Positions 19,842-64,000 of a stretch of 64,000 bases of DNA are shown one piece after another. Every line of letters starts with the position of its first letter. The stretch's first letter is position 1. The position numbers were made by a program, and so were the translations under genes. Source of the DNA: Minisyncoccia bacterium (GTDB taxonomy: Bacteria; Patescibacteriota; Minisyncoccia; Phycocordibacterales; UBA9973); assembly GCA_044228545.1 (NCBI GenBank), contig JBGAUR010000001.1, forward strand, positions 450-64,449, written 5' to 3'. The notes beneath the pieces were generated by a model, which was not told the DNA's origin, ran no database searches, and worked only from the letters and a program-made list of their open reading frames with translations.

Positions 19842-20183
19842 TTATTTCTTTGAATCGGTTGCTGCTTTAGCTGACTTTGCTGCGGATATTTCGGCTTCTT
19901 TCTTCTTCTCTTCTAATTCTTTCTGCATCTTACCTCCGTGCTTAGTGAACTTGCGAGTAGGAGAGAATTCTCCGAGTCTATGTCCTACCATATCTTCACT
20001 GACTAGGACTTCTATATGAGCTTTTCCGTTGTGGACACCAAACACGAATCCAACCATTTCAGGAGAGATGACGCAAGCTCGAGACCAAGTTTTTATCATA
20101 CCTGTCTCAATAGGCTTTTTGCCAGCTATCTTTTTAAGTAGCCTTTCATCAACATATGGACCTTTTTTGAGTGACCTTGTCAT
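19842..20183 (-). CDS. rpsS: 30S ribosomal protein S19. The true start is the ATG at 20183 ([10 protein letters not shown]); the track start at 20189 is TTG.
   Basis: [19 protein letters not shown]...[13 protein letters not shown]. Confidence 0.9.
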
Positions 20184-26616: not shown

Positions 26617-26634
26617 AGATTTCAGTTATTTTTA

Positions 26635-28047: not shown

Positions 28048-28057
28048 AAGATTATAA

Positions 28058-34837: not shown

Positions 34838-35587
34838 ATGCAAATAATAATCATTATTGTTTTAGTTTTAATTATTTTTTTATTACTAAAAAGGGAATTT
34901 AGTAGAAGTTTCACTGAGCAAACTTTTCTTTCCATAGTGAACCACACTTTCAGGACTCCATTGACTCGAATCAAATGGATGGCAGACGCACTAAAGACTG
35001 ATATGCCAAGGAAGGATGAACTTGAATTAATAAATAATTTGGATAATTCAGTAAACAGACTCCTTGAACTTGTAGATATTGTCGCTGGTATAAAAAATAT
35101 CCAAAATACTTCCACTTATGATCTAAAGGCAGTTTCAATGCGAGAGATTTTAGAAGAAGCTTTGAAAAAATACAGTGGGCTACTTCATGATAAAAAAATC
35201 TCTCTTCAAGTTCCTTCTCTTATAAATCTTCCGCTTCTATCAGTTGATACAAAGAAAATTTCTTTTGTTATAAATGTTGTGATAGAAAACGCAATTCTCT
35301 ACTCAAAAGAAAACGGTAAAATAAATATCGAGGCTGAATTAAAAAACGACAAGTTAATATTGAAAATCGAAGATAACGGTATAGGTCTATCTAGAAAAGA
35401 CCGTAACAATTTATTTAAGCGTTTTTATAGAGGTGCACGTGCAACAAAAATGAATACAGACGGTATGGGTCTTGGACTTTACGCTTCAAAGGAAATCATT
35501 CAAAGACACCACGGGGAGATATATGCTAATTCTAAAGGAGAAAACCTAGGTACTACTTTCTATATTGTTCTCCCTAGAACCAAGTAA
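34838..35587 (+). CDS. Sensor histidine kinase with a single N-terminal TM helix, a HisKA domain and a HATPase_c domain; no adjacent response regulator
   Basis: H-box VNHTFRTPLTRIKWMADAL; N/G boxes ENAILYSKENGKINI, DNGIGLS, GMGLGL. Confidence 0.7.
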   Translation: MQIIIIIVLVLIIFLLLKREFSRSFTEQTFLSIVNHTFRTPLTRIKWMADALKTDMPRKDELELINNLDNSVNRLLELVDIVAGIKNIQNTSTYDLKAVSMREILEEALKKYSGLLHDKKISLQVPSLINLPLLSVDTKKISFVINVVIENAILYSKENGKINIEAELKNDKLILKIEDNGIGLSRKDRNNLFKRFYRGARATKMNTDGMGLGLYASKEIIQRHHGEIYANSKGENLGTTFYIVLPRTK

Positions 35588-35811
35588 TTTTATAGTATCG
35601 ACAAAACCTGTTATTTCTAGTATTATACAGATATCGAATTTTAACAGTTTAGTAAGTGTTTACTTTCAAAAATACAGTCCTACCTGACACAGAAATCGAA
35701 AACAATCTTATGAAAAAAAGTTTTACCTTGGTAAGTGTGCTACATAAGAATACAGAATATAAAATAGGTCTATAAAAGGCTCGTGTATTTAGAAGTGACA
35801 CTGTCACTTAT

Positions 35812-37338
35812 ATGTCATTAACAGCAATAATAATTTCAGTACTTGCACTCGCTGCAGGTGTTGGTGTTGGGTATTATTTGCGCCTTATCATTTCTCTTGG
35901 TAAGAAGGGTTCAATGGAACTCGAAATCAAGCAGATCATGCTCGGTGCAAAAGAAGAAGCTCAAAGAGTCCTCGACGAAGCTAAGAAAAAAGCCGAAGAG
36001 AAGGCTGAAGAAGTACAATTAGAAAGCAAGAAAAAAGAAGAGGAGTGGAAGCAAACAGAACATCGTCTTATAAAAAAGGAAGAGCTTCTAGATGCTCGCC
36101 AAGTCGAGATTGATCGTGAAGTAGAAAATATCAAGCTTAAAGTTGAAGAAGTTAAAAAAGTAAAAGATCGTGTTGAGAATATGCAGTCTGAAAAAGAAGC
36201 TGAGCTTGAGAAGATTGCTCATCTTTCTGTAGATGATGCAAAAAATATTCTATTCAAGAGTATTGAAGAGCGTTATGAAGAAGATTTGCTTGTAAGAATG
36301 CAAAAGATGGAAACAGCAAATACAGAGAAGCTTGATCGTCGTGCAAAAGATATCCTATCTGCAAGTATCAATCGCCTTGCTTCATCTACAGCAAGCGAAA
36401 TGATGACGACTTCAGTAAATATCCCAAACGATGAGATCAAAGGAAAGATTATCGGTAAAGAAGGACGTAATATCCGTGCATTTGAACGTGCTGCAGGAGT
36501 TGAACTTATTATCGATGAAACTCCAGGCGCAATCGTAATATCTTCCTTTGACCCAGTTCGTAGACAAGTAGCCCGTCTTGCGCTTGAAAACCTTATATTA
36601 GACGGCCGTATCCAACCAGCAAAAATCGAAGAGGTGGTACTAAAAGCACAAGAAGATATCAATAAAATCATAAAAGATAAGGGTGACCAAGCTGTGTACG
36701 AGTGTGGAATATTTAATCTCGACCCTCGTATTGTAGCTATCGTTGGACGCTTATACTTCCGTACAAGTTATGGACAAAATGTTCTTCAACACTCTATCGA
36801 GATGGCCCACATTGCAGGAATGCTTGCTGAAGAACTTGGCGCAGATATTCAAATCGCAAAGGCAGGTGCACTTGTACATGACATTGGTAAAGCACTCGAT
36901 CATGAAGTTCAAGGTACGCACATCGACATAGGTATCCGTATCCTTCAGAAATTTGGTGCAGATCCAAGGATTATCACAGCAATGAAAAGTCACCACGATG
37001 ATTGCCCTCACGAATCTATCGAGGCTGTGATCGTCCAAACAGCGGATATGATCTCAGGTGGCAGACCTGGCGCAAGACGTGATAGTGTTGAGAATTACAT
37101 TAAACGTTTGCAGGACCTTGAAGCGCTAGCTAAAAGTTTTGAAGGGGTTGAGAAATCTTATGCTCTATCTGCTGGACGCGAAATCAGAATATTCGTCACT
37201 CCAGAGAAAGTAACAGATATAGGTGCAAAAGATATGGCACGTGATATCGCAAAGAAAATAGAGCAAGAACTCACTTACCCAGGAGAAATAAAAGTTACAA
37301 TGATAAGAGAGAATCGTATTATTGAGTTTGCAAGATAA
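35812..37338 (+). CDS. rny: Ribonuclease Y
   Basis: N-terminal TM helix, coiled coil, KH domain (GKIIGKEGRNIRAFE) and HD domain (HDIGK). Confidence 0.85.
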   Translation: MSLTAIIISVLALAAGVGVGYYLRLIISLGKKGSMELEIKQIMLGAKEEAQRVLDEAKKKAEEKAEEVQLESKKKEEEWKQTEHRLIKKEELLDARQVEIDREVENIKLKVEEVKKVKDRVENMQSEKEAELEKIAHLSVDDAKNILFKSIEERYEEDLLVRMQKMETANTEKLDRRAKDILSASINRLASSTASEMMTTSVNIPNDEIKGKIIGKEGRNIRAFERAAGVELIIDETPGAIVISSFDPVRRQVARLALENLILDGRIQPAKIEEVVLKAQEDINKIIKDKGDQAVYECGIFNLDPRIVAIVGRLYFRTSYGQNVLQHSIEMAHIAGMLAEELGADIQIAKAGALVHDIGKALDHEVQGTHIDIGIRILQKFGADPRIITAMKSHHDDCPHESIEAVIVQTADMISGGRPGARRDSVENYIKRLQDLEALAKSFEGVEKSYALSAGREIRIFVTPEKVTDIGAKDMARDIAKKIEQELTYPGEIKVTMIRENRIIEFAR

Positions 37339-37354
37339 AATAAATTAAATCCAT

Positions 37355-37669
37355 ATGAATATAGAACAAATTGGAAGAGGTAAGTTAGAAAAAATAGCTG
37401 CAGAAAGTCCTGAGTTGCAAGCAATATATCTAAAAAAGTTTGAAGAAATAGAAAAAAGAATACTTGTTGGAGAAGCAACATGGGACCAGCTTGAGGATCT
37501 TATATATGAAGCGCTAACAAGTTCAGAGGAAGTACAAAATATAGCGATGGATTTTCTCAAAAAGAGAGTTGAGGAAAGAAGGAAAAATCCACAATATAAA
37601 TCTTTGGTTTTAAAAGAAGATAGGACTGGATTTGTACATCCAGACTATCAAGAAAATAGAGAAAATTAA
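37355..37669 (+). CDS. Hypothetical protein of 104 aa
   Basis: ORF only. Confidence 0.3.
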   Translation: MNIEQIGRGKLEKIAAESPELQAIYLKKFEEIEKRILVGEATWDQLEDLIYEALTSSEEVQNIAMDFLKKRVEERRKNPQYKSLVLKEDRTGFVHPDYQENREN

Positions 37670-37718
37670 TCCGAGTGAAATAGCTATCACAAAAAAGAGC
37701 CATTTATTTGGTTCTTTT

Positions 37719-38102
37719 TTATATTTCTTCTCTTTTCAAAATGATTAAATTCAAATGAAAATGTCCTGGCATTGTTTGACCTTTTGGCAAATTTTCCCAG
37801 ATAGCATCGTAGTTTTTTGTTAAATAATCTTTTTTTATTTGTTCAAATTCTTCCCTTTCTTCAGATGTAAGTAATTCCCAACTAAAAGGAATTTCTCGTT
37901 TTGTTGCTAACATATGAGTAGTTGTTGCGACTGCATCATATGGAAATTGATTGTCTATAATAACCCAATGATTAAATTCTTTAATTGGAGTTTCTTTAAA
38001 GGGGTTGTACTGTATGCCCTTTTCTTCCCTTTCCCTCATCACTTTCATATACTTTGTCATCATCGCATCGCTACGTAAAAATGTCCGTGTAATGTTTGCC
38101 AT
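37719..38102 (-). CDS. Hypothetical protein, possibly HIT-like (GHFHLNLI)
   Basis: It has a weak, degenerate histidine-triad-like motif. The family call has low confidence. Confidence 0.3.
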   Translation of the reverse strand: MANITRTFLRSDAMMTKYMKVMREREEKGIQYNPFKETPIKEFNHWVIIDNQFPYDAVATTTHMLATKREIPFSWELLTSEEREEFEQIKKDYLTKNYDAIWENLPKGQTMPGHFHLNLIILKREEI

Positions 38103-38178
38103 AAATATTTATGGATTATAGCATAAAAAAATACCAAGCGGACTTGGTATTAATGCAAAATCTTGAGCATTTAAAATA

Positions 38179-38679
38179 TTATTTCTTTAAGGACCAGGAT
38201 GCATTGATCAAAATCCCAAACGATAATATTGGCTTACCTTGGAAGGTAGTGCCTAACTCAACAAACTCAAAGATTTTAATATTGCCAACCTTTTCCATTT
38301 TCTCAACACCTGCTCCCAGGTATTTACCTTTGGAATTCAAACTCTTAGCAAATACTCCATATACATCCCAATTTTTTTTCAAGAAATAGCCATTGAGTGA
38401 TACTAAAGAGTTATTACCGAAGCCGTACATAACCTTATGAAAGGTTTTTTCGGTGATAAATGTTACATCGGCAAGCAAATTCTGGTTTACAGTAAATGGT
38501 TTACCGCTTCCAGAGAAGGAAGTCTCTGCAACTGTGGCCAATACTGCTCCGGCGTTAACTTTTTTTATTAACTGAGCATTTATAAGTTTAGAAAATAAAG
38601 ATACGACAGCAATAAGGATAATCTTTTTCATTTTGTTTGATTTAAGGTTCTTTAATATTATTTGAACATATTCTGACAC
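38179..38679 (-). CDS. Secreted hypothetical protein with a signal peptide
   Basis: N-terminal MKKIILIAVVSLFSKLINAQ. Confidence 0.4.
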   Translation of the reverse strand: MSEYVQIILKNLKSNKMKKIILIAVVSLFSKLINAQLIKKVNAGAVLATVAETSFSGSGKPFTVNQNLLADVTFITEKTFHKVMYGFGNNSLVSLNGYFLKKNWDVYGVFAKSLNSKGKYLGAGVEKMEKVGNIKIFEFVELGTTFQGKPILSFGILINASWSLKK

Positions 38680-38779
38680 GAATTCTGTATTCTGTCATAT
38701 TTGTCGTCAAAAGATATAAAATTGCTATTTAAGCTATATTTTGTATAATATAAATGTTGTCAATTATTACGACAAATCT

Positions 38780-39529
38780 ATGAAAAACCCTAAATTATTG
38801 GGAACATTAAAAGATATTGGACTTGATGAGACAGAAGCACAAATCTACCTGACTTCCCTTTCATTAGGCCCAACTACAGTACTGAAGATCGCTCGCAGTA
38901 GTTATATCAAGCGCACGACGGTATATGGAGTTATTGAATCCTTGCAGAGCAAAGGTCTAATGCGAATTGAGTTAAAGGGACTGAAGCAACTATATGTGGC
39001 TGAAAACCCAGAGAAACTAGAGGCGATACTTGATAATAGGAAAAGAGAATTTAGCGCAAAATTGCCTGACTTTATGGCTCTTTATAAGCTAGAAGGTGGT
39101 GAAAGTACTATAAAATACTACACTGGGCTCAAAGCCATGAAACGTATATATCTGAGCACTCTAGATGAGGTAAAAAGTGGTGATGAATACCTTGTGATAA
39201 CCAACCAAGAAAAGTGGTTCCTCCTTGATCCAGACTTTTGGATGAAGGAGTATATAGAGGAAAGGGCGAAATTGCCTTGCAAAACAAGGCTAATATCCCA
39301 AAATTCCAATACCGCTCTAGAACATCAGAAGTTTGAAAGAAATTACAACGAAAAATTCAAGATTTTCGGAGAAAATGTTTCAATAAATATAGATATGGTG
39401 CTTATCCCGAACAAACTCATAATTGTTGACCTACTTCCACCTCTTACAACCCTTGTAATAGAAAATAAAAATATCATTGAACTCCAAAAACAACTTTTTG
39501 AAATTATCTGGAGCTCTATACCAGAATAG
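38780..39529 (+). CDS. TrmB-family winged-helix transcriptional regulator
   Basis: GLDETEAQIYLTSLSLGPTTVLKIARSSYIKRTTVYGVIESLQSKGLM is a TrmB-type N-terminal HTH. Confidence 0.6.
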   Translation: MKNPKLLGTLKDIGLDETEAQIYLTSLSLGPTTVLKIARSSYIKRTTVYGVIESLQSKGLMRIELKGLKQLYVAENPEKLEAILDNRKREFSAKLPDFMALYKLEGGESTIKYYTGLKAMKRIYLSTLDEVKSGDEYLVITNQEKWFLLDPDFWMKEYIEERAKLPCKTRLISQNSNTALEHQKFERNYNEKFKIFGENVSINIDMVLIPNKLIIVDLLPPLTTLVIENKNIIELQKQLFEIIWSSIPE

Positions 39530-39687
39530 ATTGAGTATTTTGTCAATCCAGATGTGAAAGCTTGCGTGAAAATACCCTTGGTATATAATAGTATTACTCC
39601 TATTTTAAGGAACGCGTTTCAAAAACGGTCGAACATTATTCAGAAAAATTTTCACTTTTTCTCGCGAGATTGTGAAAAAACAAATAA

Positions 39688-39960
39688 ATGAATAAACAAG
39701 CATTAGTAGAATGGGTTCACGGCAAAATCGGCGGTACAAAAGTGCAAGCTGAAGAAGTTGTGAACGGAATGTTTGATGCTATCGTATCTACTTTGAAGAA
39801 AGGTGGCGAAGTATCAATCGCGGGAATTGGAATCTTCTCAGTCAAGCAACGCGCAGCTCGTATGGCTCGCAATCCAAAGACTGGTGAACAAGTCAAAGTC
39901 CCTGCGACAAAAGTGCCTAAGTTCCGAGCAGCGAAAGCTCTAAAAGACGCTGTAAAATAA
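39688..39960 (+). CDS. hup: DNA-binding protein HU
   Basis: MNKQALVEWVHGK...ISIAGIGIFSVKQRAARMARNPKTGEQVKVPA shows the HU arm motif. Confidence 0.85.
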   Translation: MNKQALVEWVHGKIGGTKVQAEEVVNGMFDAIVSTLKKGGEVSIAGIGIFSVKQRAARMARNPKTGEQVKVPATKVPKFRAAKALKDAVK

Positions 39961-42308: not shown

Positions 42309-43955
42309 TTAAGCAATTTCTTTTAGATAACAACTCTCACAAGCAATTTTTTCATACCCCCAACTTTTTGGATAAAATGCATTTATATTTTTATTACAAT
42401 AAAAACAATTGTAAAATTCACTTTTACTTGGACTTGTAGTAATAAGACGCTCTTTCGTACGTACATCAAAGTGAACTCTTGGAATAGCAATCTGCATTTT
42501 CTTGAGAAAAGATAGTTCCGCTTCTGATATATTATATCTCCATCCAGTTACAGGACAAACTAAGGGTTGTTTACAAATACTTACATCAATAGCTTCAATT
42601 GATTCTGGTATATCTTTAGTATTCATACCTTCGACTTTTACTCCTTCACCTTCGTCCCAATATCCACCCTTTTCTAATACATACTCTCTTGTAACTTCTG
42701 GAAAATAAATCGCTGCAGTAGAAAAATTGTAAGGGCATAAACCAAGTGAGTATGGTGGAAATTTACCATATTCCCCCTTCTCTTTCATATCAGAAATTAT
42801 TTTTGATTTCAAAACTTCGTATTCTTCTTTTGTATACTGCTTATTTAAGATACAATACTTCTTCTTACGCAAACTAATACAACCGAAACAATAATCGATT
42901 TCGAGGCACTCGTCACAATACTCAGAATATCTTGCTCCATCACACCATATAGAATAATTCAGTTGGTACCCATTAGTGCAACAGCTATTATTACCAGATA
43001 GTTCAATTTTCCAACAACCGGTCAAATCTATACAATCTTTTGCCTCACGACCTCTTAAACAATCTACACAATTTTCAGATTCCTCCCAAAAGAAAACATT
43101 AGTACAACTTTTGCAGTCACTAAGATAACTACCAAAAGAATCATATGTTTTAATACTAAAATTCTCTCTATGAACGACTTGTTTCTTTAATATTTCTTGA
43201 TATTGGGAACGTAATTTTTCAAGATTTTTATTGGAAGAAAAATCAAATTCCTTAACTTTTTCTAAATACTCTTCTTTCGTATATTGAACATTTAAAATGC
43301 AATACGACTTCCCTCTTAGATTCCAACACATAAAGCAATTACTACAATTTCTACAATCAAAAAGGAAAGAACTATTTATGCAATCTCTACTATTTCTAGA
43401 GAAAAATAATTCATAGGAGTTAAAACAGTAAACGCAATCATAGCACTTTTCAAGATCAAACACATGTGATGTATCTATCGAGTCTTTTACCTTTACTGCC
43501 CTATATCCGTAAATAAGATCTTCGCAATGTGAAACCGAGCGACTCAAATAACAATTCTTAGATTCCCATGCATCATCACACCAATCACAATTTAGATTTT
43601 GTGCTCCTTGTTGGTGTGGGCGAGGAACTTTTTCTTGAAGTTCTTTTAATTGATCAATAAATGGCCGACTTGAATCGTAATCTTGTCCATATTCCATCGG
43701 ATCCCAAGCATCACTCCACCATTCTTTTGATGTATATATTGGATATCTTGGATTCTCTGGTAAAACAGTAATGAGCTTTTCCCCAGACAAATCAGACTTC
43801 CCTGTTCTAAATTTGCCAAACGGCCAAAAAGCCATATGTTGTTTCCATCTGCAATATACACAAATATCAGGCCCAACAATATCAACTTTATTATATAAAT
43901 CCCTTTCTATTGGAGTTATCTCAAAATTTGCTTTGCAATACAGACATTCTTTCAT
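42309..43955 (-). CDS. Cysteine-rich protein of 548 aa, unknown family (paralog B)
   Basis: The same architecture as 8079-9767: CLYCKANFEITPIERDLY...CVYCRWKQ, WWSDAWDPMEYGQDYDSSRPFIDQLKEL, and two CILN(V/K)QYTKEEY motifs. Confidence 0.6.
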   Translation of the reverse strand: MKECLYCKANFEITPIERDLYNKVDIVGPDICVYCRWKQHMAFWPFGKFRTGKSDLSGEKLITVLPENPRYPIYTSKEWWSDAWDPMEYGQDYDSSRPFIDQLKELQEKVPRPHQQGAQNLNCDWCDDAWESKNCYLSRSVSHCEDLIYGYRAVKVKDSIDTSHVFDLEKCYDCVYCFNSYELFFSRNSRDCINSSFLFDCRNCSNCFMCWNLRGKSYCILNVQYTKEEYLEKVKEFDFSSNKNLEKLRSQYQEILKKQVVHRENFSIKTYDSFGSYLSDCKSCTNVFFWEESENCVDCLRGREAKDCIDLTGCWKIELSGNNSCCTNGYQLNYSIWCDGARYSEYCDECLEIDYCFGCISLRKKKYCILNKQYTKEEYEVLKSKIISDMKEKGEYGKFPPYSLGLCPYNFSTAAIYFPEVTREYVLEKGGYWDEGEGVKVEGMNTKDIPESIEAIDVSICKQPLVCPVTGWRYNISEAELSFLKKMQIAIPRVHFDVRTKERLITTSPSKSEFYNCFYCNKNINAFYPKSWGYEKIACESCYLKEIA

Positions 43956-54206: not shown

Positions 54207-54333
54207 TCTTGCGAAAGTAGTATTTTCTGCTATGCTTTGTATATATTACAAATAACCAGTTATTCTCTAGACGGATAGAGTTGAAACCGGACGTGTTTCA
54301 AAACTAGGGTCTGGAGAAAAGCTTATAAAAAAT

Positions 54334-56463
54334 ATGAATAGCAAAGAATACGAAGTAGAAATCGGTGGTAAGAAGATCACTGCGGTTTTTAGTGACTTAG
54401 CAGATCAAGCAAATGGTTCAGTGATGCTCAAATGCGAAGGTACTGTAGTTATGGCAACAGCTGTGATCTCAAAGAGTGGTGAAAATAATCCAGGCTTTTT
54501 CAACCTAACAGTTGAGTACTTAGAGAAGTTTTATGCTGCTGGAAAAATCTTAGGTAGTCAATTTAGTAAAAGGGAAGGGCGTCCATCTGACCAAGCAATT
54601 CTAGCGGCACGTGTCATCGATAGAACAATCCGACCTCTTTTTGATCACCATATAAAAAATGCAGTTCAAGTAATAATCACAGTTATTGCTATCGGTAAAG
54701 CAGATCCAAAAACTTTGGGAGTGAACGCTACATCTATCGCACTTAATATTTCAGACATACCTTGGAATGGGCCAATTGGAGGAGTCCATATAAGTAAAAC
54801 AAAAGAAGATAGTACTCTGAAAGTAAACAATTATATTCCGAGCGCAGATGAGCCAGTCTATGCTCTTGATCTAATGGTCTGCGGAAAAGATAGAACTATA
54901 AATATGATCGAGTCTATGGCTTTCGAACTATCTGATGAAGAGATGGGTCAGGGATTCGACATTGCAATCGAGGAGATAACAAAATGGGAAGCATTCCAAC
55001 AAAAACTCAGAAGTGAACTTGGTAAAGAAAAACTTTCATTTCCAAAGCCTGAAGCAACAAAAGATGTGGTTGACTTATTCAACGACAAAGTAAAATCAAT
55101 AATTGATGCTGGTATTTTTAGTAAAGATGGGAAGAAAGTTGCAAATGATGCAGAATCGCTTTGGAACAATATTTTAAAAGAGACATACAATGAAGAACAA
55201 AAAGAAGAAATCTATGTTGCACAGGATTACCTACATCACTATCTTGATAACATGTTTCATGAAAAAGCAATTGCAGAAAACAAACGCGCAGATGGTCGTG
55301 CACTAGATGAAGTTCGCGCTCTTTATGCAAAGGCTGGTGGTATTTCAGACGTGTTACACGGTTCTGGAATATTCTACAGAGGAGAAACTCATGTGCTATC
55401 AGTTCTCACACTTGCCGGTCCTGAGAGTATGCACACTATAGATGGAGTGGAATTCTCAGCAAAGAAAAGATTTATGCATCACTATAACTTTCCTCCATAC
55501 TCAGGCGGTGAAACAGGCCGTGTTGGAGGACTAAATCGCAGAGAAATGGGTCATGGATTTCTAGCTGAAAAAGCTCTTACACCTGTTATCCCAGAAAAAG
55601 TAAACTTCCCTTACACTATCCGAGTTGTTTCTGAATCAGTAGCTTCAAATGGATCAACATCTCAAGCTTCAATCTGTGCATCAACCGTAGCACTGATGGA
55701 TGGTGGAGTTCCTATAAAAACACCAGTTGCAGGAATCTCAATCGGTGCGATGATTGACACTGCTGATAAGAATAAATATGTATTGTTAACAGACATACAA
55801 GGTCCAGAAGATCACTATGGAGATATGGACTTCAAAGTTGCTGGAACAAAAGATGGTATCACGGCAATACAGCTTGATGTAAAAGTTGATGGAATTCCGT
55901 TAAACATCCTAAAAGAAGCACTTAATCGTGCAAAAGTTGCTCGTCTAAAAATTCTCGAAACTATTACAAAAGAAATATCTACTCCTCGCGCATCTATATC
56001 ACCAAATGCGCCGATGATAGTAGTTACAAAAGTAAAGAAAGAACAGATAGGACTTGTTATTGGTCCAGGAGGAAAAAATGTAAATGCAATTCGTGAAGAG
56101 ACTGGAACTGAAATTACGATCGAAGAAGATGGTACTGTATTTATAACAGGTAAAAACGGCGGAGCAGAAAAAGCAAAGAAGATAATTGAGGATATGACTC
56201 ATGAATACGTTGTAGGAGAACTAGCAAATGGAGAAGTTGTGAAGATAATGGACTTTGGTGCTTTTGTTAAAATAAATGCAGATACGGAAGGGTTAGTACA
56301 TGTATCTGAAATCGCACCATTCCGAGTTGAGAAAGTTTCTGATATCCTTAAAGAAGGAGATGAAGTTCCAGTAAAAATAATTAAAGTGGACGAGAGAGGA
56401 CGTCTTAACTTATCAATTAAAGAAGCGAACTCTGATTTCTTTAAGCCAAATGGAGGAAAATAA
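54334..56463 (+). CDS. pnp: Polynucleotide phosphorylase
   Basis: Two RNase PH domains, a KH domain (GLVIGPGGKNVNAIREETG) and an S1 domain; 709 aa. Confidence 0.95.
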   Translation: MNSKEYEVEIGGKKITAVFSDLADQANGSVMLKCEGTVVMATAVISKSGENNPGFFNLTVEYLEKFYAAGKILGSQFSKREGRPSDQAILAARVIDRTIRPLFDHHIKNAVQVIITVIAIGKADPKTLGVNATSIALNISDIPWNGPIGGVHISKTKEDSTLKVNNYIPSADEPVYALDLMVCGKDRTINMIESMAFELSDEEMGQGFDIAIEEITKWEAFQQKLRSELGKEKLSFPKPEATKDVVDLFNDKVKSIIDAGIFSKDGKKVANDAESLWNNILKETYNEEQKEEIYVAQDYLHHYLDNMFHEKAIAENKRADGRALDEVRALYAKAGGISDVLHGSGIFYRGETHVLSVLTLAGPESMHTIDGVEFSAKKRFMHHYNFPPYSGGETGRVGGLNRREMGHGFLAEKALTPVIPEKVNFPYTIRVVSESVASNGSTSQASICASTVALMDGGVPIKTPVAGISIGAMIDTADKNKYVLLTDIQGPEDHYGDMDFKVAGTKDGITAIQLDVKVDGIPLNILKEALNRAKVARLKILETITKEISTPRASISPNAPMIVVTKVKKEQIGLVIGPGGKNVNAIREETGTEITIEEDGTVFITGKNGGAEKAKKIIEDMTHEYVVGELANGEVVKIMDFGAFVKINADTEGLVHVSEIAPFRVEKVSDILKEGDEVPVKIIKVDERGRLNLSIKEANSDFFKPNGGK

Positions 56464-57355
56464 AAAACCTAACAATTTAGACAGCGACTTAAAAGTTATC
56501 CATACATATACTTCGGATATGGCTGATGCAGTGCGTCAAAATGAAATGTCGGTTATAAAAATAGCACTGGCAGAAAAAGAAAAAAGGGAGAGTGAGGAGA
56601 TGTACAAAAAATCCGAAGGAAGTAATTCTTCAAAAATCTTTCTAATTTTTGGAGGTATTATTTTAATAGGAATTGCTTTGGGAATAACTTACTTTGTAAC
56701 GAAAAAAAATATTGAGACAAACTCTCCAATCCAAACTACAAAAGAAATTGAAGCACCTATTGTTTATAACGAAAAAGTATTTATAGATACAGCAGGACTT
56801 ACGACTCATAATGATTTATCGGGTGCAATAAAGAAAGAAGTTGAAAATACTAGTAAAGATAATTCAGTAAAAGCTATCTTCTTGAAGAAAGATGTAGGCG
56901 GTAAATCAGAATTAGTAGATGTAAATGGCTTTACTTCTTTAATTGGTGAAACTGCACCCCAAGCTTTAATTAGAAACTTGGGTGAAGAATATTTGATAGG
57001 GACTTACAATATTAAAGATGGTGATATCTCAAAACCTCATTTATTCCTAATATTTAATATAAAGGATTATAACCAAATATATGCTTCAATGCTTGCTTGG
57101 GAAAAAACACTACTTAATGATATGAATTTGATTTTCAATATCGATGTAAATGAAGATAGATCTGAGCTTCTTGAAAAACAATGGTCTGACATAATTATAA
57201 ACAACAAGGATGCTAGAGTATTATATGACAATCTAGGAAAAGAAGTCTTGTACTATATTTTTATAGATAAAAATAGTTTCCTTATTACAGACAGTCAGGA
57301 TATGATAAAGGAAATTGGAGCAAGAATTACATCTAAGAAGACAAAACCATTATAA
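56450..57355 (+). CDS. Hypothetical membrane-anchored protein of 301 aa
   Basis: It has a single TM helix (IFLIFGGIILIGIALGITYFV). I recognise no family. Confidence 0.4.
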   Translation: MEENKKPNNLDSDLKVIHTYTSDMADAVRQNEMSVIKIALAEKEKRESEEMYKKSEGSNSSKIFLIFGGIILIGIALGITYFVTKKNIETNSPIQTTKEIEAPIVYNEKVFIDTAGLTTHNDLSGAIKKEVENTSKDNSVKAIFLKKDVGGKSELVDVNGFTSLIGETAPQALIRNLGEEYLIGTYNIKDGDISKPHLFLIFNIKDYNQIYASMLAWEKTLLNDMNLIFNIDVNEDRSELLEKQWSDIIINNKDARVLYDNLGKEVLYYIFIDKNSFLITDSQDMIKEIGARITSKKTKPL

Positions 57356-57357
57356 GA

Positions 57358-57753
57358 TTGCTAATTATAAACAGTCTTGTTAAGATTAAAAATATGAAAA
57401 CAGATACATATAAAGCAAAATTGGAAGAAGAAAAGAAACTATTGGAAGAAGAGCTAAGCTCTATGGGTAAGCTCGATAAAGAGACTGGCGACTGGGAAGC
57501 TACACCTCCGTCCCAAAGTGCTCCAGAAGCAGACGAGAGTGATATGGCAGATCGAACAGAAGATTATGAAGAGCGATCAGCTATAACTGAAACTTTGGAT
57601 CAGAGATTTGATGATATTAATAATGCTTTACAAAAGATAGAGAGTGGTAATTATGGAACTTGTGAAGTTTGTGGAAAACCAATTGAAGAAGACAGATTAG
57701 AGGCAAACCCTGCAGCTCGCACATGCAAGGCTTGCATGGAGAAGGTCGTATAA
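57358..57753 (+). CDS. DksA/TraR-family C4 zinc-finger protein. The likely start is the ATG at 57394.
   Basis: CEVCGKPIEEDRLEANPAARTCKAC after a coiled-coil region. Confidence 0.6.
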   Translation: MLIINSLVKIKNMKTDTYKAKLEEEKKLLEEELSSMGKLDKETGDWEATPPSQSAPEADESDMADRTEDYEERSAITETLDQRFDDINNALQKIESGNYGTCEVCGKPIEEDRLEANPAARTCKACMEKVV

Positions 57754-57792
57754 GAATTTTAATAAAAGCCCATTTGGGGCTTTTATGTTTTT

Positions 57793-59364
57793 ATGTCATT
57801 TTCTAGAGTTTATTCTGCTCAAACACATTTACTAAAAGGTAAAATCGTCACAGTTGAGGTAGATATTACCAAAAATACTCTACACTCTTTCACATTGGTA
57901 GGTCTTCCAGATAAAGCAGTCGATGAATCAAAGGATAGGATGAGCTCGGCGCTCAAAAACTCTGGATTTACTTCTCCTAAAAATCAAAACCAGAAAATAG
58001 TTATCTCGCTTTCACCGGCAGATCTGAAAAAAGAAGGACCTTACTTTGATCTCGCTATAGCTTTGGCGTATTTATTATCAGCCGGTGAAATAGACTTTGA
58101 CCCAGAGAATAGAATTTTCTTGGGTGAATTATCTCTTAATGGTGAACTTCAACCAATTAAGGGAGCACTGCCTCTTGCAGAAGCTGCAAAGAAACTTGGG
58201 TTCAAAGAAATATTTTTACCAGAACAAAATGCAAAAGAAGCAGCGCTTGTCGAAGGACTAACTATCTATGGAGCAAAAACATTGAGAGAAGTAGTGGATC
58301 ACATTTATAAAATAAAATTGGACAAAAAAGGTAACCCAATCGAAAAAGAAAGATTGAAAATAACTCCAACTCCAAAAACAGAAATAATTTATAATAAAAA
58401 AGAACACGGGATAGATTTTTCAGATATTCGCGGACAAGAAGGGGCAAAGCGGGGGATAGAGATAGCTGCTGCAGGTGGACACAATATTGCTATGTCTGGA
58501 CCTCCAGGCACTGGTAAAACAATGCTTGCTAGAGTTTTCTCTCATATTCTTCCTGATTTAAAAACAGACGAATGTTTAGAAATCACAGGAATACATTCAG
58601 TGGTTGGGCTTTTGGACGACGCCCTTGTTACAGAACCACCTTTTAGGGCACCGCACCATACAGCAAGCTATGTATCAATGATTGGTGGTGGTGCTAATCC
58701 AAAGCCTGGTGAAGTTACACTTTCTCATAGAGGAGTATTATTCCTTGACGAATTCCCAGAATTTGAAAAACGTGTTTTGGAATCTCTTCGCCAACCACTT
58801 GAAGACAATATTGTATCTATATCTCGCGCTCGAGGATCGGCAATATTCCCATCGAATTTCATCTTAGTCGCAGCCATGAATCCATGCCCTTGTGGTAATA
58901 AGGGAAGTAAGCAAAAAGAGTGTATTTGTAAACCGAGTGATTTAGATAGATATTCAAGAAAACTTTCAGGTCCTATAATGGATCGTATAGATATCTGGGT
59001 AACCGTCGGAGCAGTAGACTATGAAAAGTTATCTAGCATAGAACCATCTGGAGAAAAGACGAGTGTAATAAAAGACCGTGTAAAGAGAGCTCGCGACATT
59101 CAAAATAAAAGATTTAAAAATTCCCCAAGAAAAATAAACACAAATAGCGAGATGAATGTTAAAGAGCTCGCGATTTATGCTCCGCTTGATCCTGAAATTA
59201 AAAAATTATTAAACGAGAGTGCTGAGAAACTCCAACTATCTGCAAGAGCATATCATCGAACTATAAAACTCGCTCGTACTATCGCAGATTTAGAAGGGAA
59301 TGAGAATATAAACCAAAATCACATTTTAGAAGCATTACAATATAGACCGAGAACAAATAATTAA
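57793..59364 (+). CDS. yifB: YifB/ComM-family Mg-chelatase-like AAA+ ATPase
   Basis: Lon-like N-domain, Walker A MSGPPGTGKTMLA, Walker B VLFLDEFPEF, arginine finger. Confidence 0.85.
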   Translation: MSFSRVYSAQTHLLKGKIVTVEVDITKNTLHSFTLVGLPDKAVDESKDRMSSALKNSGFTSPKNQNQKIVISLSPADLKKEGPYFDLAIALAYLLSAGEIDFDPENRIFLGELSLNGELQPIKGALPLAEAAKKLGFKEIFLPEQNAKEAALVEGLTIYGAKTLREVVDHIYKIKLDKKGNPIEKERLKITPTPKTEIIYNKKEHGIDFSDIRGQEGAKRGIEIAAAGGHNIAMSGPPGTGKTMLARVFSHILPDLKTDECLEITGIHSVVGLLDDALVTEPPFRAPHHTASYVSMIGGGANPKPGEVTLSHRGVLFLDEFPEFEKRVLESLRQPLEDNIVSISRARGSAIFPSNFILVAAMNPCPCGNKGSKQKECICKPSDLDRYSRKLSGPIMDRIDIWVTVGAVDYEKLSSIEPSGEKTSVIKDRVKRARDIQNKRFKNSPRKINTNSEMNVKELAIYAPLDPEIKKLLNESAEKLQLSARAYHRTIKLARTIADLEGNENINQNHILEALQYRPRTNN

Positions 59365-60137
59365 TTGTTGGTATCCAATCTTTTTGCTTCAGCCCAAGCA
59401 AGTTCGTAAATTTTTTTCATTGCATCTGCAATCTCACTACTCTCTATTATTATTCCGAGTTTCTCTCTCCATGAAGCAATCATGACTTTGTTGTCATAAA
59501 TATTTATCTCTGGAGAAAAATAAAATTTATCTGCAGGCACTAGTGCGCTTTCTCGCATCTCATCTTTATCTAATGATTTTCTTTCTCTACCGATATCAGT
59601 GTTAGGAATTATCGCTCGTATATGAATACCGTTTCCTGCACGACGTTTGTAGTATTTCGGGAAATAATTTGGAAGACCTTTGTGCATATCATCAACTGTT
59701 GCATAAGCACGGATTGGTTCGTGAGAGGTGAGAGTATCTTCATACACTTCCATGAGGCCTTCCGTACCTTCATAGAAACGAACTCGGGCACGATCTGTCA
59801 TATTGTGGATTGATTTTAATTCCGGAATTAGTTCTTCTGTTTTTTTTAACGCTTCATGTTTATGACGAATATCTTCTGTTATAAATCTTGAAAGATTCTC
59901 TGGTGATTCGGCACTGTACTCTTGTTTAGGTTCTTTGCCTGAGATAATAACAAGACCTTTTGCAGATAGGGAATCGAGAATATCATAACCGGTTGTACGA
60001 TTTATATTTGCACGTCGAGAAATAGCTGAAACCGTCCCTTTACCAAGCTCAAGGAGGGAGATATACACACCTGCTTCTTTATCTGTAAGACCAATTGCTA
60101 CAAGCTTTGTTTTAAGCTCAACTTGCTCTTTTTTCAT
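59361..60137 (-). CDS. TrmB-family transcriptional regulator (second copy)
   Basis: GLTDKEAGVYISLLELGKGTVSAISRRANINRTTGYDILDSLSAKGLV. Confidence 0.6.
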   Translation of the reverse strand: MKKEQVELKTKLVAIGLTDKEAGVYISLLELGKGTVSAISRRANINRTTGYDILDSLSAKGLVIISGKEPKQEYSAESPENLSRFITEDIRHKHEALKKTEELIPELKSIHNMTDRARVRFYEGTEGLMEVYEDTLTSHEPIRAYATVDDMHKGLPNYFPKYYKRRAGNGIHIRAIIPNTDIGRERKSLDKDEMRESALVPADKFYFSPEINIYDNKVMIASWREKLGIIIESSEIADAMKKIYELAWAEAKRLDTNN

Positions 60138-60252
60138 GCTTTAAGTATATATTACGGGTGATATTTGTGTCAATATCTTTCCACAATTTTCTTTTTTATA
60201 ATTTATAGTCTTATAAATAAGCTATTTTATATATCTTTTTTGACGATATAAC

Positions 60253-60281
60253 TTGACAGATAGATTGTAATTGGTTATATT
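60253..60281 (+). promoter_or_regulatory. Sigma70-like promoter: TTGACA (60253-60258), 17-nt spacer, TATATT (60276-60281)
   Basis: Read directly. It lies upstream of the small zinc-ribbon ORF and Cys-rich paralog C. Confidence 0.4.
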
Positions 60282-60312
60282 CTGTTATGTTATTGGCAAA
60301 CTTAAGAATTTT

Positions 60313-60510
60313 ATGGAAAAAGAAACAATTCCAAAAAAAATTACACGGGTTTGTAAAAAATGTAATAATACTTATATGATAGATTACGAAAATGTACTAT
60401 TCTATAAATCTATCAATAGTGAACTTTTTGAGTATTGCCAAGAATGTAGATTAGTTCCAAAAATTAGAAATACAGAGAAGAAAGACTGGTGCCACAATGA
60501 CCTAAAATAA
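60313..60510 (+). CDS. Small zinc-ribbon protein of 65 aa, a stand-alone copy of the N-terminal module of the Cys-rich family. The track start at 60271 is TTG.
   Basis: CKKCNNTYMIDYENVLFYKSIN...YCQECR parallels CKTCEKEFGIRDEDLVFYEQMKSPTPQYCPDCR of the downstream gene. Confidence 0.4.
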   Translation: MEKETIPKKITRVCKKCNNTYMIDYENVLFYKSINSELFEYCQECRLVPKIRNTEKKDWCHNDLK

Positions 60511-60545
60511 GATTACTAAAATTAGGGTTATGGTAATAAATATAT

Positions 60546-62231
60546 ATGACTAAACAAAATTGTAAAACATGTGAAAAAGAATTTGGTATAAGAGATGAAG
60601 ATCTTGTGTTTTATGAGCAGATGAAAAGTCCAACACCACAATACTGCCCTGACTGTCGTATGATGCGACGTCTTGCTTTTCGAAACGAACGAACATTATA
60701 CAAAAGAAAGTGCGATCTTTGTGGAGAGAACGGAGTATCACTTTATACCGAAGGGACTCCATTCCCAGTGTATTGTCATAAATGTTGGTGGAGTGATAAA
60801 TGGGACCCAAGAGATTTAGCAATGAATTACGATCCGTCTCGTCCATTCTTAGAACAGTTTAAAGAATTGCAAAGTAAAATACCGCGCATTGCACTTCTTG
60901 TGATTGACTCAGTTCGATCGGACTACACAAACAACGCAGGTGAGAATAAAGACTGTTACCTAATATTTGCAGCTGAAAATAATGAAGATTGTTCATACGG
61001 TCGTCTAGTTCAGAGGTGTAAAGGTTGTGTTGACTGTGCATTTATATATGATTCCGAACTTTGTTATGAGTGTATAGATTGTAGAGGGTGTTTCAAATGT
61101 ATGTATTCTGAGCAGTGTCAATCCTCTAGCGATCTATTGTTCTGCTACAACATGCGTGATTCCCAAAATTGTATCTTATGTACTAATGGTAGGCACATGT
61201 CTAATGCAATTTTAAACGTTAAGTATAGTAAAGAAGAATTTGAAAAGAAGAAAACTGAAATACTTTCGAGTTATGAAAATATTGAGGAAGCAAAGAGACA
61301 GTACAATGAACTAAAAAACAATAATATAGTAAAAAATGCATGGCAAACAAAGTGCCACAACACAACGGGAGACTATATGTACAACTGCTATGATGGAGTA
61401 AGACTTTTTGACGTATCAGATGCAAAAAATTGTTCCTATATGGCAGATGCTATGGATATAAAAGACTCTATGGATTGCAATAATTTTTATATAAAGTGTG
61501 AATTTGAATACGATATGATGGGAGTACTTGGTGGAGCAAAGAATAAGCATGGTTTCTATGTTATGTGGTGTAATAATACAGAATATTGTGACTCATGTTA
61601 TCACTCAAATGACTTGTTCGGTTGCATAAGATTAAATAAAGAGAGCTATTCAATACTGAATAAAAGATATGATAAGGAAGAATATCTACAGTTACGAGAA
61701 AAAATAATTGAAAGTATGAAAGTCGATGGAACATACGGTCAATTCTTTCCACCATCACTATCACCATTCGGATATAATGAAACCTTGGCGAAAGAATACT
61801 TCCCAATGAATCGAGATGAGGCAATTAAAAAAGGCTTCAAATGGCAGGAACAAAATTCAGGAACATTTGGTAAGGAAACCGTTATAGAAGAAAATATTCC
61901 AAAAACAACAGAAGATATCCAAGATACTATAACAGGAGATATTCTCGCATGTAATGAATGTGGAAAAAACTACAAGCTTACTCAAACAGAGGTGGAATTT
62001 TATCGTAGAATGCATCTACCAGTACCACATAAAGATTTTGAGTGTCGCCACCAAAACAGAATGAAAAAAAGAAATCCGCGAGCACTTTGGCCACGCTCAT
62101 GCATGTGCACAAACGAAAAACATATGAATCACCAGAGTGGAACATGTAAGGAAAACTTTGAGACAAGCTACTCACCAGATCGAAAAGAAATAGTTTATTG
62201 TGAAAGTTGTTATCAACAAGAAGTTGCTTAG
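60546..62231 (+). CDS. Cysteine-rich protein of 561 aa, unknown family (paralog C)
   Basis: N-terminal ribbon, WWSDKWDPRDLAMNYDPSRPFLEQFKEL, CxxCxxCxxC clusters, two ILN(V/K)(K/R)Y(S/D)KEE(F/Y) motifs, and a C-terminal ribbon CNECGKNYKLTQTEVEFYRRMHLPVPHKDFECRHQNRMKKRN. Confidence 0.6.
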   Translation: MTKQNCKTCEKEFGIRDEDLVFYEQMKSPTPQYCPDCRMMRRLAFRNERTLYKRKCDLCGENGVSLYTEGTPFPVYCHKCWWSDKWDPRDLAMNYDPSRPFLEQFKELQSKIPRIALLVIDSVRSDYTNNAGENKDCYLIFAAENNEDCSYGRLVQRCKGCVDCAFIYDSELCYECIDCRGCFKCMYSEQCQSSSDLLFCYNMRDSQNCILCTNGRHMSNAILNVKYSKEEFEKKKTEILSSYENIEEAKRQYNELKNNNIVKNAWQTKCHNTTGDYMYNCYDGVRLFDVSDAKNCSYMADAMDIKDSMDCNNFYIKCEFEYDMMGVLGGAKNKHGFYVMWCNNTEYCDSCYHSNDLFGCIRLNKESYSILNKRYDKEEYLQLREKIIESMKVDGTYGQFFPPSLSPFGYNETLAKEYFPMNRDEAIKKGFKWQEQNSGTFGKETVIEENIPKTTEDIQDTITGDILACNECGKNYKLTQTEVEFYRRMHLPVPHKDFECRHQNRMKKRNPRALWPRSCMCTNEKHMNHQSGTCKENFETSYSPDRKEIVYCESCYQQEVA

Positions 62232-62235
62232 CATA

Positions 62236-62268
62236 AAAAATCCCTCGATTTTAATCGGGGATTTTTTA
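62236..62268. terminator. Hairpin AAAAATCCCTCG-ATTTTAAT-CGGGGATTTTTT between convergent genes
   Basis: Read directly. Confidence 0.4.
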
Positions 62269-62574
62269 TGCTTTCTTAACTACCTTTTTCTTAGTTGTTG
62301 TTTTCTTTTTTGCTTTAGCTATTGGTTTTGGTGAGAAAGGAGCAGTTTCAATGGTAAATGGTTTTGGAGCAGCGATTAATCTTTCTTTTTTCTTCTTTTT
62401 TACAGTTTTCTTTTTAGCTACGACTTTCTTTTTTGTAGCTGTTTTACTTGTAGCTACCTTGGTGGGTGATACTGTGGTTTTTGAAGTAGTTGTAGTTGCT
62501 GCAGACACATCCGCCATAGGATAGCCTATGAATAGAGTAAGAACTATAAGTAATGGGATCAATCTTTTATTCAT
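62266..62574 (-). CDS. Secreted Lys/Thr-rich low-complexity protein of 102 aa
   Basis: A signal peptide is followed by TTTTSKTTVSPTKVATSKTATKKKVVAKKK repeats. Confidence 0.4.
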   Translation of the reverse strand: MNKRLIPLLIVLTLFIGYPMADVSAATTTTSKTTVSPTKVATSKTATKKKVVAKKKTVKKKKKERLIAAPKPFTIETAPFSPKPIAKAKKKTTTKKKVVKKA

Positions 62575-63790
62575 GGTCTACAAAATCTCTACTGTTAACT
62601 TTTAAGCCCTTATAAGGGTTACCAAGACCTGAACCACTTTCGAAGTGGAACCCTAAGTGGAGGTGTGGCCCTGTAGATTTACCAGTTGAACCAACATATC
62701 CTATTATATCGCCTTTTTTAACATCTTGACCAGCTACTGCAATGACCTCACTCATGTGACCAAATATTGCTTGGCGTCCATCAATAAAGTTTATGACCAC
62801 ATATCGGCCATACCCACCATTATAACCTGTTGGCTTAGCAATTAAAACATTACCCCCTTGAACAGCATATATAGGTGTACCTATTGGAGCAGCAAAATCA
62901 TAGGCTTGGTCAGCATGTAATCCTTGCGAAACTCGGCCTATACCCTTAGGGAACGGCCAGATATAGCCACTATCTATATTACCTTCTGGTTGGCCTGTTG
63001 GACCTTGAGGTTCAGGTTGTTGTGGTGGTTGCTCTACTTGTGGTGTCTCCACAACAGGAACGCTTACAACTGGAGCTTGGATTGCAGGAGTAGGAGCTGG
63101 TGGCTCTTCTTTTACTTCTTGTTTTACTTCTACTTCAACCTTTTTGACCTCTTTTGTATCAGTATTTTTAGCTATAGTTTTATCGTTTTTAGAAATGTCT
63201 TCTTTAGTATCGGGTTTGATACCGAAGATAACTAGATTCTGACCAATCTTTATAAGATCAGACTTCTTAAGATCAGTGTTAGATGCAATGATTGTACTTT
63301 TACTGATTTTTAGCTTTTTAGCAATACTATCTAAAGTATCACCCTTTTTAACTATATATGTAGTAATTTTGACTTCGGGATCATACTGTTCAAGACCTGA
63401 GTCAACATCCAGGTTTCCATTGTTAGATAGAGCTGTGCTGTTTGGCAAAGAAGTAATAACAGGTTCGTCTTTAATACTCTTTAAGTCTGGGTTGATAGAA
63501 GATTCAAGCAATGGAACATTCTGAGAGTTGTGAATCACATCTCCAGATTCTTCTAATTCAGAAGCTTGGGTCTTATTACCGACTATCTTGTCTACTAAGT
63601 CTGAGAAAAAACCAGCCGAAGCGAGGCTTGGCTGGTAAAACAGAAATATAAATATAAAAACAGAAATATAAGCTTTCATAGTAGAAGGCTTGCAAAATAA
63701 GGTTATTTTCATCTTTTGGTGATTTTGCCAAGCAAAACTACCATTAGAATCTTGATTTTTGAGTTTAATAAGCCTAAATAAATTAACCAC
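62567..63790 (-). CDS. LysM-domain M23-family peptidoglycan metalloendopeptidase. The true start is probably an internal ATG after the hydrophobic segment.
   Basis: LysM block YIVKKGDTLDSIAKKLKISKSTIIASNTDLKKSDLIKIGQNLVI; M23 motifs HADQAYDFAAPIGTPIYAV and GYVGSTGKSTGPHLHLGFHF. Confidence 0.8.
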   Translation of the reverse strand: MVNLFRLIKLKNQDSNGSFAWQNHQKMKITLFCKPSTMKAYISVFIFIFLFYQPSLASAGFFSDLVDKIVGNKTQASELEESGDVIHNSQNVPLLESSINPDLKSIKDEPVITSLPNSTALSNNGNLDVDSGLEQYDPEVKITTYIVKKGDTLDSIAKKLKISKSTIIASNTDLKKSDLIKIGQNLVIFGIKPDTKEDISKNDKTIAKNTDTKEVKKVEVEVKQEVKEEPPAPTPAIQAPVVSVPVVETPQVEQPPQQPEPQGPTGQPEGNIDSGYIWPFPKGIGRVSQGLHADQAYDFAAPIGTPIYAVQGGNVLIAKPTGYNGGYGRYVVINFIDGRQAIFGHMSEVIAVAGQDVKKGDIIGYVGSTGKSTGPHLHLGFHFESGSGLGNPYKGLKVNSRDFVDHE

Positions 63791-64000
63791 ATTGAGATCA
63801 CCCTATCTAGGAACTACAGTACGACCACAAATGTGAGGGCTGTAATTTTCTAAATGATATCAACGTGATTGTTACAATCTTTTCGGTAATGCTTACAAAA
63901 TAAAGCTTTTCTTCTATATCTGGAGGTAGAGGAGCCCGGAAGCAACCCTACTCATTAAAGGGTAGCCCATAAGAGCTAGTTAGTCAACAAAGTAATGCAC

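Follow-up and report, generated by a model that had tools for sequence, protein, structure and literature searches.

Is a short open reading frame (ORF) that resembles only the beginning of a large protein, and lies just in front of the gene for one, a broken remnant or a working gene? The question is raised by a locus of a Minisyncoccia bacterium (GenBank assembly GCA_044228545.1, contig JBGAUR010000001.1), which we analysed within a stretch of 64,000 nt (positions 450 to 64,449, forward strand), hereafter the window. This DNA is low in GC and homologues of its genes are labelled Patescibacteria, of Paceibacteria/Nomurabacteria type. On the plus strand, an ATG-initiated frame of 65 codons plus stop occupies 60313-60510 (protein sequence MEKETIPKKITRVCKKCNNTYMIDYENVLFYKSINSELFEYCQECRLVPKIRNTEKKDWCHNDLK) and is followed after 35 nt by the ATG of paralog C (561 aa, 60546-62231, plus strand), a member of a large Cys-rich family with three paralogs (A, B and C) in the window. 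The initial annotation described and placed the small ORF and its distance to C correctly, and took it for either a pseudogenised fragment of a fourth paralog or a free-standing partner subunit. Comparative sequence data show that 60313-60510 is a genuine protein-coding gene, whose predicted product is one four-Cys finger of the zf_Tbcl type followed by a short, probably disordered tail. The small proteins are a rare, undescribed subfamily of a known, uncharacterised finger type.

A rare family of free-standing small proteins

An exhaustive phmmer/HMMER search of 1.84 billion protein representatives returned six free-standing proteins of 59-65 aa that match the window ORF over approximately their whole length, at 35-62% identity and with E values from 4e-22 to 2.6e-4. 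The two closest, P0124 (65 aa, 62% identity, E 4e-22) and P0125 (65 aa, 58%, E 2.3e-19), align from residue 1 to 65 with residues 1 to 65 of the ORF, and are followed by P0126 (59 aa, 55%, E 5.6e-13), P0127 (65 aa, 41%, E 8.1e-09), P0128 (63 aa, 36%, E 9.3e-06) and P0130 (62 aa, 35%, E 2.6e-04). The same search also found two generic double-zf_Tbcl proteins (P0129 and P0131). A profile search added P0132, bringing the small family to 8 clusters among 5.8 billion proteins, and a six-frame scan of the fetched loci added a member in locus L009. A word-indexed protein search and a scan of JGI metagenomes returned near-identical alleles only, plus one false match (L086). The end-to-end extent of these 59-65-aa relatives bears out the free-standing alternative of the initial annotation. 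JGI names one of them, P0126, as 'RNase P subunit RPR2', which we treat as most likely a generic zinc-ribbon mis-annotation.

Residues M1, C14, K15, C17, Y31, S33, Y41, C42, C45, N62 and K65 are invariant in the family. The predicted zinc-finger core spans codons 14-45 (60352-60447, plus strand), with C14-x2-C17 and C42-x2-C45 as its two Cys pairs together with F30, Y31 and S33. The extreme C-terminal end carries a second conserved element, with the family consensus [DE]-W-[CS]-x-N-P-[LF]-K as the last residues of the protein; in the window it reads DWCHNDLK (60484-60507, plus strand), an ending shared with two close alleles. These endings retain W, N, L and K at the extreme C-terminus, with D for the conserved P. 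This tail is not alignable to the large family by hhalign and is predicted to be disordered by AlphaFold2 (AF2). When a profile hidden Markov model (HMM) of the small family was run over 101 loci, members scored at least 96.6 bits (124.8 for the window ORF) and N-terminal modules of the large family at most 52 bits, so the small proteins form a separate family.

Relationship to the N-terminal module of the large family

Paralog C is laid out as a zf_Tbcl and a zf_Tbcl_2 module, a Cys-rich centre, and again zf_Tbcl and zf_Tbcl_2; in its ortholog P0042, Pfam recognises zf_Tbcl (PF13451, 32.1 bits) followed by zf_Tbcl_2 (PF23477) at both protein ends. As Pfam describes zf_Tbcl as a 'probable treble clef', the module that the initial annotation called a ribbon is better regarded as a treble-clef-type finger.

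BLASTP aligns the small ORF to the large paralogs at 32-36% identity over 36-38 aa, pairing residues 14-51 with the N-terminal 43 residues of C (32%) and 11-46 with A (36%). An HMM built from 144 N-terminal modules of 84 related loci gives it 29.8 bits, with E 1.7e-7 in a set of 7659 ORFs. In a shuffle control the real sequence reached 31.4 bits; the best of 5000 full shuffles scored 16.0, and the best of another 5000 in which Cys positions were fixed scored 19.6. Family against family, hhalign pairs the small proteins with the N-terminal module of the large family at 98.5% probability (E 2e-15) and with its C-terminal zf_Tbcl module at 96.7% (E 4e-10). The zf_Tbcl_2 modules were unmatched by the small family in the same hhalign comparisons (49% and 9% probability). 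The aligned part of the small protein comprises residues 11-52 only and corresponds to about the first 50 residues of the large protein; in relatives, the homology can be followed by eye into the linker CRxxxRLxxNEK.

Membership in PF13451 is transitive. The window ORF gives no match at E up to 1 and its relatives P0127, P0128 and P0130 reach 18.6, 20.3 and 22.4 bits, against a Pfam gathering threshold of 24 bits; the N-terminal module of the C ortholog P0042, with the score given above, passes it and provides the link. The window ORF has the zf_Tbcl hallmarks C14-K-K-C17, F30-Y31 and C42-Q-E-C45-R46. For the small protein AF2 predicts a hairpin (residues 9-13 and 20-24) and a helix (25-34) with a predicted local distance difference test (pLDDT) score of about 78 over residues 11-30 and 65.7 overall, and predicts no second helix. 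Searched against PDB folds, this model gave no significant match; 6ydh was among the weak ones (E 2.4, template modelling score 0.34). No mention of zf_Tbcl was found in the literature searched.

Intactness and selection on the reading frame

None of the three sequenced alleles of the small ORF is disrupted. In seven inter-lineage pairs, the uncorrected ratio of non-synonymous to synonymous differences per site (pN/pS) of the small gene is 0.16-0.50, with Fisher p values from 5e-4 to 4e-11. Between the window and L085, codons 47-65 show pS 0.70 and pN 0.11 (7.0 synonymous and 5.0 non-synonymous changes), like the neighbouring genes, and within the last stretch (codons 55-65) five synonymous and no non-synonymous changes can be read off the alignment. 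The gene evolves faster than its neighbour, with pN of 0.20-0.38 against about 0.05 for C.

These data bear directly on the pseudogene alternative, according to which the ORF would be a decaying fragment of a fourth paralog such as D, a 576-aa protein. The space between C and the neighbouring gene for a TrmB-family regulator, where the small ORF lies, is indeed a variable slot: in L039 and L007 it holds a full tandem copy of D together with other ORFs, in L010 a 140-aa ORF, in L006 a 197-aa ORF, and in almost every species different genes. D itself (L039 3268-4998, L007 3241-4998, also in L002 and L003) is 41% identical to C and directly upstream of the C ortholog. That a full tandem paralog can sit in this slot, that the small ORF amounts to about the N-terminal portion of a large protein, and that HMMs of D-like N-terminal modules score the window allele at 33.7 bits against 30.6 for those of C orthologs would all suit a fragment. 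On the other side, the ORF is 25-32% identical to the N-terminus of D, although the C orthologs of the genomes with D are 82-85% identical to C, and the remainder of a large gene has left nothing recognisable, there being only 35 nt after the stop. Neither remnants of zf_Tbcl_2, of the Cys-rich centre or of the C-terminal modules nor signs of decay were seen at the small ORF. Considering in addition the intact frame in every allele and lineage, the purifying selection, the end-to-end homologues and a new conserved tail motif absent from the large proteins, we reject the pseudogene claim of the initial annotation and regard a decaying fragment as the least probable of the explanations discussed here.

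Linkage to large-family genes and organization of the locus

In 7 of the 7 lineages recovered with fetched contigs, the small gene lies 11-39 nt upstream of a large-family gene on the same strand (the contexts of P0126, P0127 and P0132 are outside this count). Its partner is C itself in the window and L001 (spacer 35 nt), an ortholog of C in L085 (35 nt, 91% identical to C), L009 (11 nt, 78%), L094 (32 nt, 77%) and L095-98 (39 nt, 79%), and a member of a different 574-aa subfamily in L093 (22 nt, 36% identical to C) and L099/L100 (36 nt, 35%). Genes further upstream are wholly different from locus to locus (TrmB, radical-SAM/SPASM, unknown ORFs), the small-to-large pair being the constant part, and such strict adjacency argues for a functional tie between the two genes. 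Two other accounts of the arrangement were discarded: gene fission, as no large-family protein has a doubled N-terminal finger, and a programmed frameshift or read-through fusion with C, as the frame relation to the partner differs between loci.

The TrmB-to-C intergenic region of the window spans 408 nt and holds a promoter, the 65-codon ORF and the 35-nt spacer; when the region is shuffled, 1.3% of the shuffles yield by chance a closed ORF that starts with ATG and has 65 codons or more. The sigma-70-type promoter (60253-60281, plus strand) consists of TTGACA (60253-60258) and TATATT (60276-60281) separated by 17 nt, as the initial annotation had reported upstream of both genes, and matches the consensus at 11 of 12 positions. 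In 4 kb there are just two such matches, the other being the divergent promoter (60173-60144, minus strand) of the TrmB-family regulator gene (59361-60137, minus strand), a conserved neighbour of the C locus. The -35 box is kept in the relatives L005, L008, L085 and L009, where it precedes the C ortholog or the C slot, and in relatives lacking the small gene the same promoter drives C directly. The spacer (60511-60545, plus strand) is terminator-free: no terminator-like site was found between the small ORF and C, and the first one, an intrinsic-terminator-like hairpin with a T-run (62243-62270, plus strand; hairpin 62243-62260), follows C and closes the two-gene unit. From these positions we infer that the small gene and C are co-transcribed.

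Gene callers start the small ORF at TTG 60271, giving 79 aa. All family members start at the equivalent of ATG 60313, and 60271 lies upstream of the -10 box, so the 65-aa form is the correct one and the database gene calls of 79 and 85 aa are over-extensions. A Shine-Dalgarno motif is present in no gene of the window and its lack is therefore no argument against translation of the small gene, whose AATTTT-ATG context is typical of the genome and common to the family.

Being the first cistron after the promoter, separated from C by a short, terminator-free spacer, and dispensable in most lineages, the small ORF also has the look of a regulatory upstream ORF (uORF) or leader peptide, in which the act of translation would tune C and the peptide itself would be functionless. 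Such a leader would hardly be expected to preserve four invariant Cys and a conserved tail, or a pN/pS well below 1 across lineages saturated at synonymous sites. The spacer length and the frame relation to C also vary, and no conserved RNA structure was detected (fold z scores -1.1 and -1.3; no Rfam match). We thus consider a uORF improbable.

Several further elements of the intergenic regions deserve mention. Blocks 60160-60190 and 60217-60258 (for example ATATTTGTGTCAATATCTTTCCACAATTTT and ATAAGCTATTTTATATAT) are near-invariant across species that are about 80% identical elsewhere; they contain both divergent -35 boxes and probably include a TrmB operator. An out-of-frame ATG at 60287, 5 nt past the -10 box (60276-81), opens a 30-codon frame that overlaps the small-gene start and is open in L085 too, and could be a leaderless start or mere chance. 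TATAAT-like boxes lie 6-9 nt before the ATG of several window genes, for instance upstream of 34245, 43955 (minus strand), 11654 (minus strand) and 52262, which suggests leaderless or very short-leader mRNAs in the window.

Among the other loci with a small gene, L094 (about 1810-1840) and L095 (about 1105-1135) have upstream of it an inverted repeat, AAGTTAAT-N10-ATTAACTT, that may be an operator and is degenerate in L009; L093 and L099 share another conserved hairpin-like element (CCATAAG...CTTGTGG). L093 carries two large-family genes in tandem. In L085 the small gene is intact, while a 1-nt deletion (equivalent to window position 61937) splits the C ortholog that follows it into 482 and 73 aa; the Logan contig could be misassembled here, or the frameshift could be genuine.

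Distribution, recombination and origin

Of the 80 GTDB species loci fetched with C, one (L009) has the small gene. In the closest species, L005, whose C is 90% identical, the BLASTN match to the window ends at 60258 and resumes at 60527, with 43 nt including its own -10 box in place of 268 nt in the window; L008 is similar, its match ending at 60258 and resuming at 60545. The lineage-specific segment thereby delimited (60259-60526, plus strand) contains the -10 box, the leader, the small gene with its stop and a further 16 nt, and is thus placed between C and what was ancestrally its -35 box. The initial annotation had named disruption or absence in close relatives as evidence against the small ORF: absence is indeed found in L005, whereas wherever the frame is present it is intact.

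The tree of the small genes is incongruent with that of their partners. The window allele is nearest to those of L093/L099 (58-62% identity), whose partners are 35-36% identical to C, and farthest from those of L094, L095 and L009, which precede C orthologs; L094 and L095 share 35-39% identity with it, for partners that are 77-79% identical to C. Descent from the neighbour's module is best supported in the L094-type members, which score 59.7 bits against C-type N-terminal modules and in which the first 20 finger residues are near-identical to those of the adjacent C ortholog; the window allele, at 31-34 bits, is more derived. We consider it likely that the gene originated as an old partial 5′ copy of a large-family gene that then acquired its new tail, evolved faster and underwent repeated loss or transfer.

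Exchange is also visible at short range. Throughout 54271-64000 (9.7 kb), the sole differences between L001 (ENA contig k141_1177508) and the window are 11 single-nucleotide polymorphisms (SNPs) at 60275-60531, of which six are non-synonymous and two synonymous changes in the small ORF and three fall in flanking non-coding DNA. Over 49 kb, the same contig (L087, L091) shows further islands at 18459-20148 (69 SNPs in 1.7 kb) and 35101-39744 (342 differences in 4.6 kb) and is otherwise near-identical; the Logan contigs L088, L089, L090 and L092 are 100% identical to the window. These divergence islands are recombination tracts between co-existing strains, from which it follows that the donor of the 60275-60531 tract had the small gene too. 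Two other sources of the SNPs were discarded, namely hypermutation, given equal or denser islands elsewhere in the same strain pair and no adenine bias, and a diversity-generating retroelement, given that the segment occurs only once in the window and that substitutions start from A, T, C and G alike; no reverse transcriptase-like ORF was evident by eye among the translated window ORFs, few of which were scanned against Pfam.

Between the window and L085, whose flanks are about 81% identical, codons 1-46 of the small gene are instead over-conserved: at 96.4% identity against a mean of 81.3%, they are more conserved than any other 140-nt stretch in 8.5 kb, and their pS is 0.11 against 0.52-0.70 in the flanking genes. 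A structured RNA or riboswitch was considered for this stretch and rejected on the Rfam and folding results already given. Exchange of the segment between lineages seems the simplest reading, recent allele exchange being the more likely cause.

Could the segment then be selfish, the cargo of a small mobile or recombining cassette that moves among strains and paralog slots? The patchy distribution, the incongruent trees, a recombination tract placed exactly over the segment and the low pS of codons 1-46 are what such a cassette would produce. Yet neither repeats, a target-site duplication, a transposase or integrase nor a second copy was found in the window, viral matches were lacking, and recombination tracts of like SNP density occur elsewhere in the window, so that we judge a selfish cassette very improbable.

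A possible role as an accessory of paralog C

The explanation that best accommodates these observations, and which we hold with moderate confidence, is a genuine small gene sharing one transcript with C, whose product would be an optional accessory that modulates C by mimicry of its N-terminal finger. The small protein, resembling that finger, would dock at the site normally contacted by it or compete for its ligand, and would make another contact through its own conserved C-terminal peptide. It would in this way modulate the large protein without forming part of its core. A modulator is preferred to a core subunit since more than 99% of the large-family loci, those of the closest species included, are without the small gene; a general subunit role is unlikely. 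The partner proposed by the initial annotation is plausible in this sense, and the terminal ribbons may, as it suggested, be interaction modules. We further speculate, tentatively, that the pair may be a bacterial counterpart of the eukaryotic microProteins: a partial 5′ copy of a multi-finger gene would have become a separate, selected protein of 65 aa, co-transcribed with a gene of the parental type, which it would modulate by mimicking the N-terminal finger with the aid of a newly gained docking tail.

The main rival is an independent small zinc-finger protein, nucleic-acid-binding or regulatory (operon autoregulation, RNA), that makes no contact with C and owes its position to shared regulation or origin. 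It draws on the existence of free-standing single and double zf_Tbcl proteins that match the ORF about as well as the large-family module does (P0129, P0131), on the occurrence of the zf_Tbcl fold in small phage proteins and on the conserved operator-like sequences of the intergenic region. It accounts poorly for adjacency in all seven lineages despite wholly different upstream neighbours, and the conservation of the tail motif points to a peptide dedicated to docking. We consider this rival rather unlikely, and each of the others (uORF, pseudogene, selfish cassette) even less likely.

A number of observations weigh against an accessory of C. The small gene is lacking in the closest species and in 79 of the 80 GTDB species loci, and its 8 clusters compare with more than 4193 for the large family, so any role it has must be dispensable. 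Near-identical strains give a small-gene pN/pS of 0.63, which is not significant. The window allele scores only 31-34 bits against N-terminal modules, well below the L094-type members, and the generic free-standing proteins P0129 and P0131 reach 36-39 bits against the window ORF, about equal to the large-family module. The window allele also has D in place of the conserved P of the tail motif, and AF2 models the small protein with modest confidence (pLDDT 65.7). Finally, the large family has no Pfam or NCBIfam family of its own and no sequence or fold match in the PDB.

The large Cys-rich family and its surroundings

The large family has more than 4000 clusters (>4193), with orthologs about 60% identical across Patescibacteria homologs. 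Besides C, the window encodes paralog A (562 aa, 8079-9767, minus strand) and paralog B (548 aa, 42309-43955, minus strand), neither of which has a small gene upstream; A, B and C are pairwise 30-31% identical. The AF2 model of the large protein has a pLDDT of 73.8, with low confidence for the Cys-rich centre. Its BFVD matches are phage 'zinc-ribbon domain' proteins at the finger modules only. In all three paralogs the Cys-rich centre (about residues 120-260) matches the phage family phrog_15341 (E 4.5e-6 for B), indicating that phages carry relatives of it. A defence system was rejected on PADLOC, which returned no matches, and a viral origin was rejected given no relatives in IMG/VR and PHROG matches of the small protein at chance level.

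Paralog A lies within a ribosomal-protein/secY/adk/map string, between a 198-aa gene of unknown function (9772-10368) and the gene for methionine aminopeptidase (7264-8031), a neighbourhood that may point to a translation-related role of the large family. Elsewhere in the window, a cluster of large surface-protein-like genes (25033-29344) includes one for a secreted-looking protein of 478 aa (26635-28071, minus strand), whose residues 257-358 form a Hint/Vint (intein-like) domain that scores 31.3 bits against Pfam Vint.

Comparison with known systems and significance

The nearest described relative is PF13451 itself, to which P0129, P0131 and other bacterial and phage proteins annotated as 'zinc-ribbon domain containing' belong as free-standing members. 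The window ORF shares with zf_Tbcl the small size, the predicted hairpin and helix, two CxxC pairs about 24 residues apart and the pattern CxxC-x3-[FY]-x-[IM]-x5-[ILV]-x-FY ... C-x2-CR. It differs in lacking P-x2-C-P and the basic R-x-rR after the second knuckle, and in having an N-terminal extension of about 10 residues, a unique W-x-x-N-P-L-K C-terminus and strict linkage to a large gene. The N-terminal module of the large family is its best profile match (the hhalign result above), from which it is set apart by being free-standing, about 10 times shorter than the large protein, faster-evolving, provided with a new tail and present at less than 1% of the loci.

Eukaryotic microProteins are small, consist of a single domain and act on larger proteins to which they are evolutionarily related (PMC9638782). 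The small protein is likewise small, with a single domain related to one of a larger multidomain protein, here encoded alongside. The likeness to these microProteins is one of design and not of family, binding and modulation of the larger protein being in our case a proposal supported by the conserved gene adjacency. Among prokaryotes, the zinc-finger micro-proteins of Haloferax volcanii, for example HVO_0758 (PMC10716476) and HVO_2753 (PDB 6ydh), are similarly free-standing, shorter than 70 aa and built on two CxxC-type knuckles. They show no significant sequence or fold similarity to the small protein, their knuckles are of the C(P)XCG type and they have no linkage to a parent gene.

The locus shows that a fragment-like ORF can be told from a pseudogene by comparative data alone, and it documents a rare, undescribed family of small proteins that word-based searches miss. 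The gene arrangement is unusual and consistent. We regard the case as of moderate interest, chiefly for the natural way it offers into a large protein family that is highly conserved, multi-copy and uncharacterised in Patescibacteria. Were the microProtein reading true, the terminal zf_Tbcl modules of the large family would be interfaces for protein-protein interaction or ligand competition, which would offer a first experimental handle on the family. As a selected, free-standing copy of the first finger, the small protein resembles a ready-made domain probe, and its binding target would reveal the job of the terminal fingers of the large protein.

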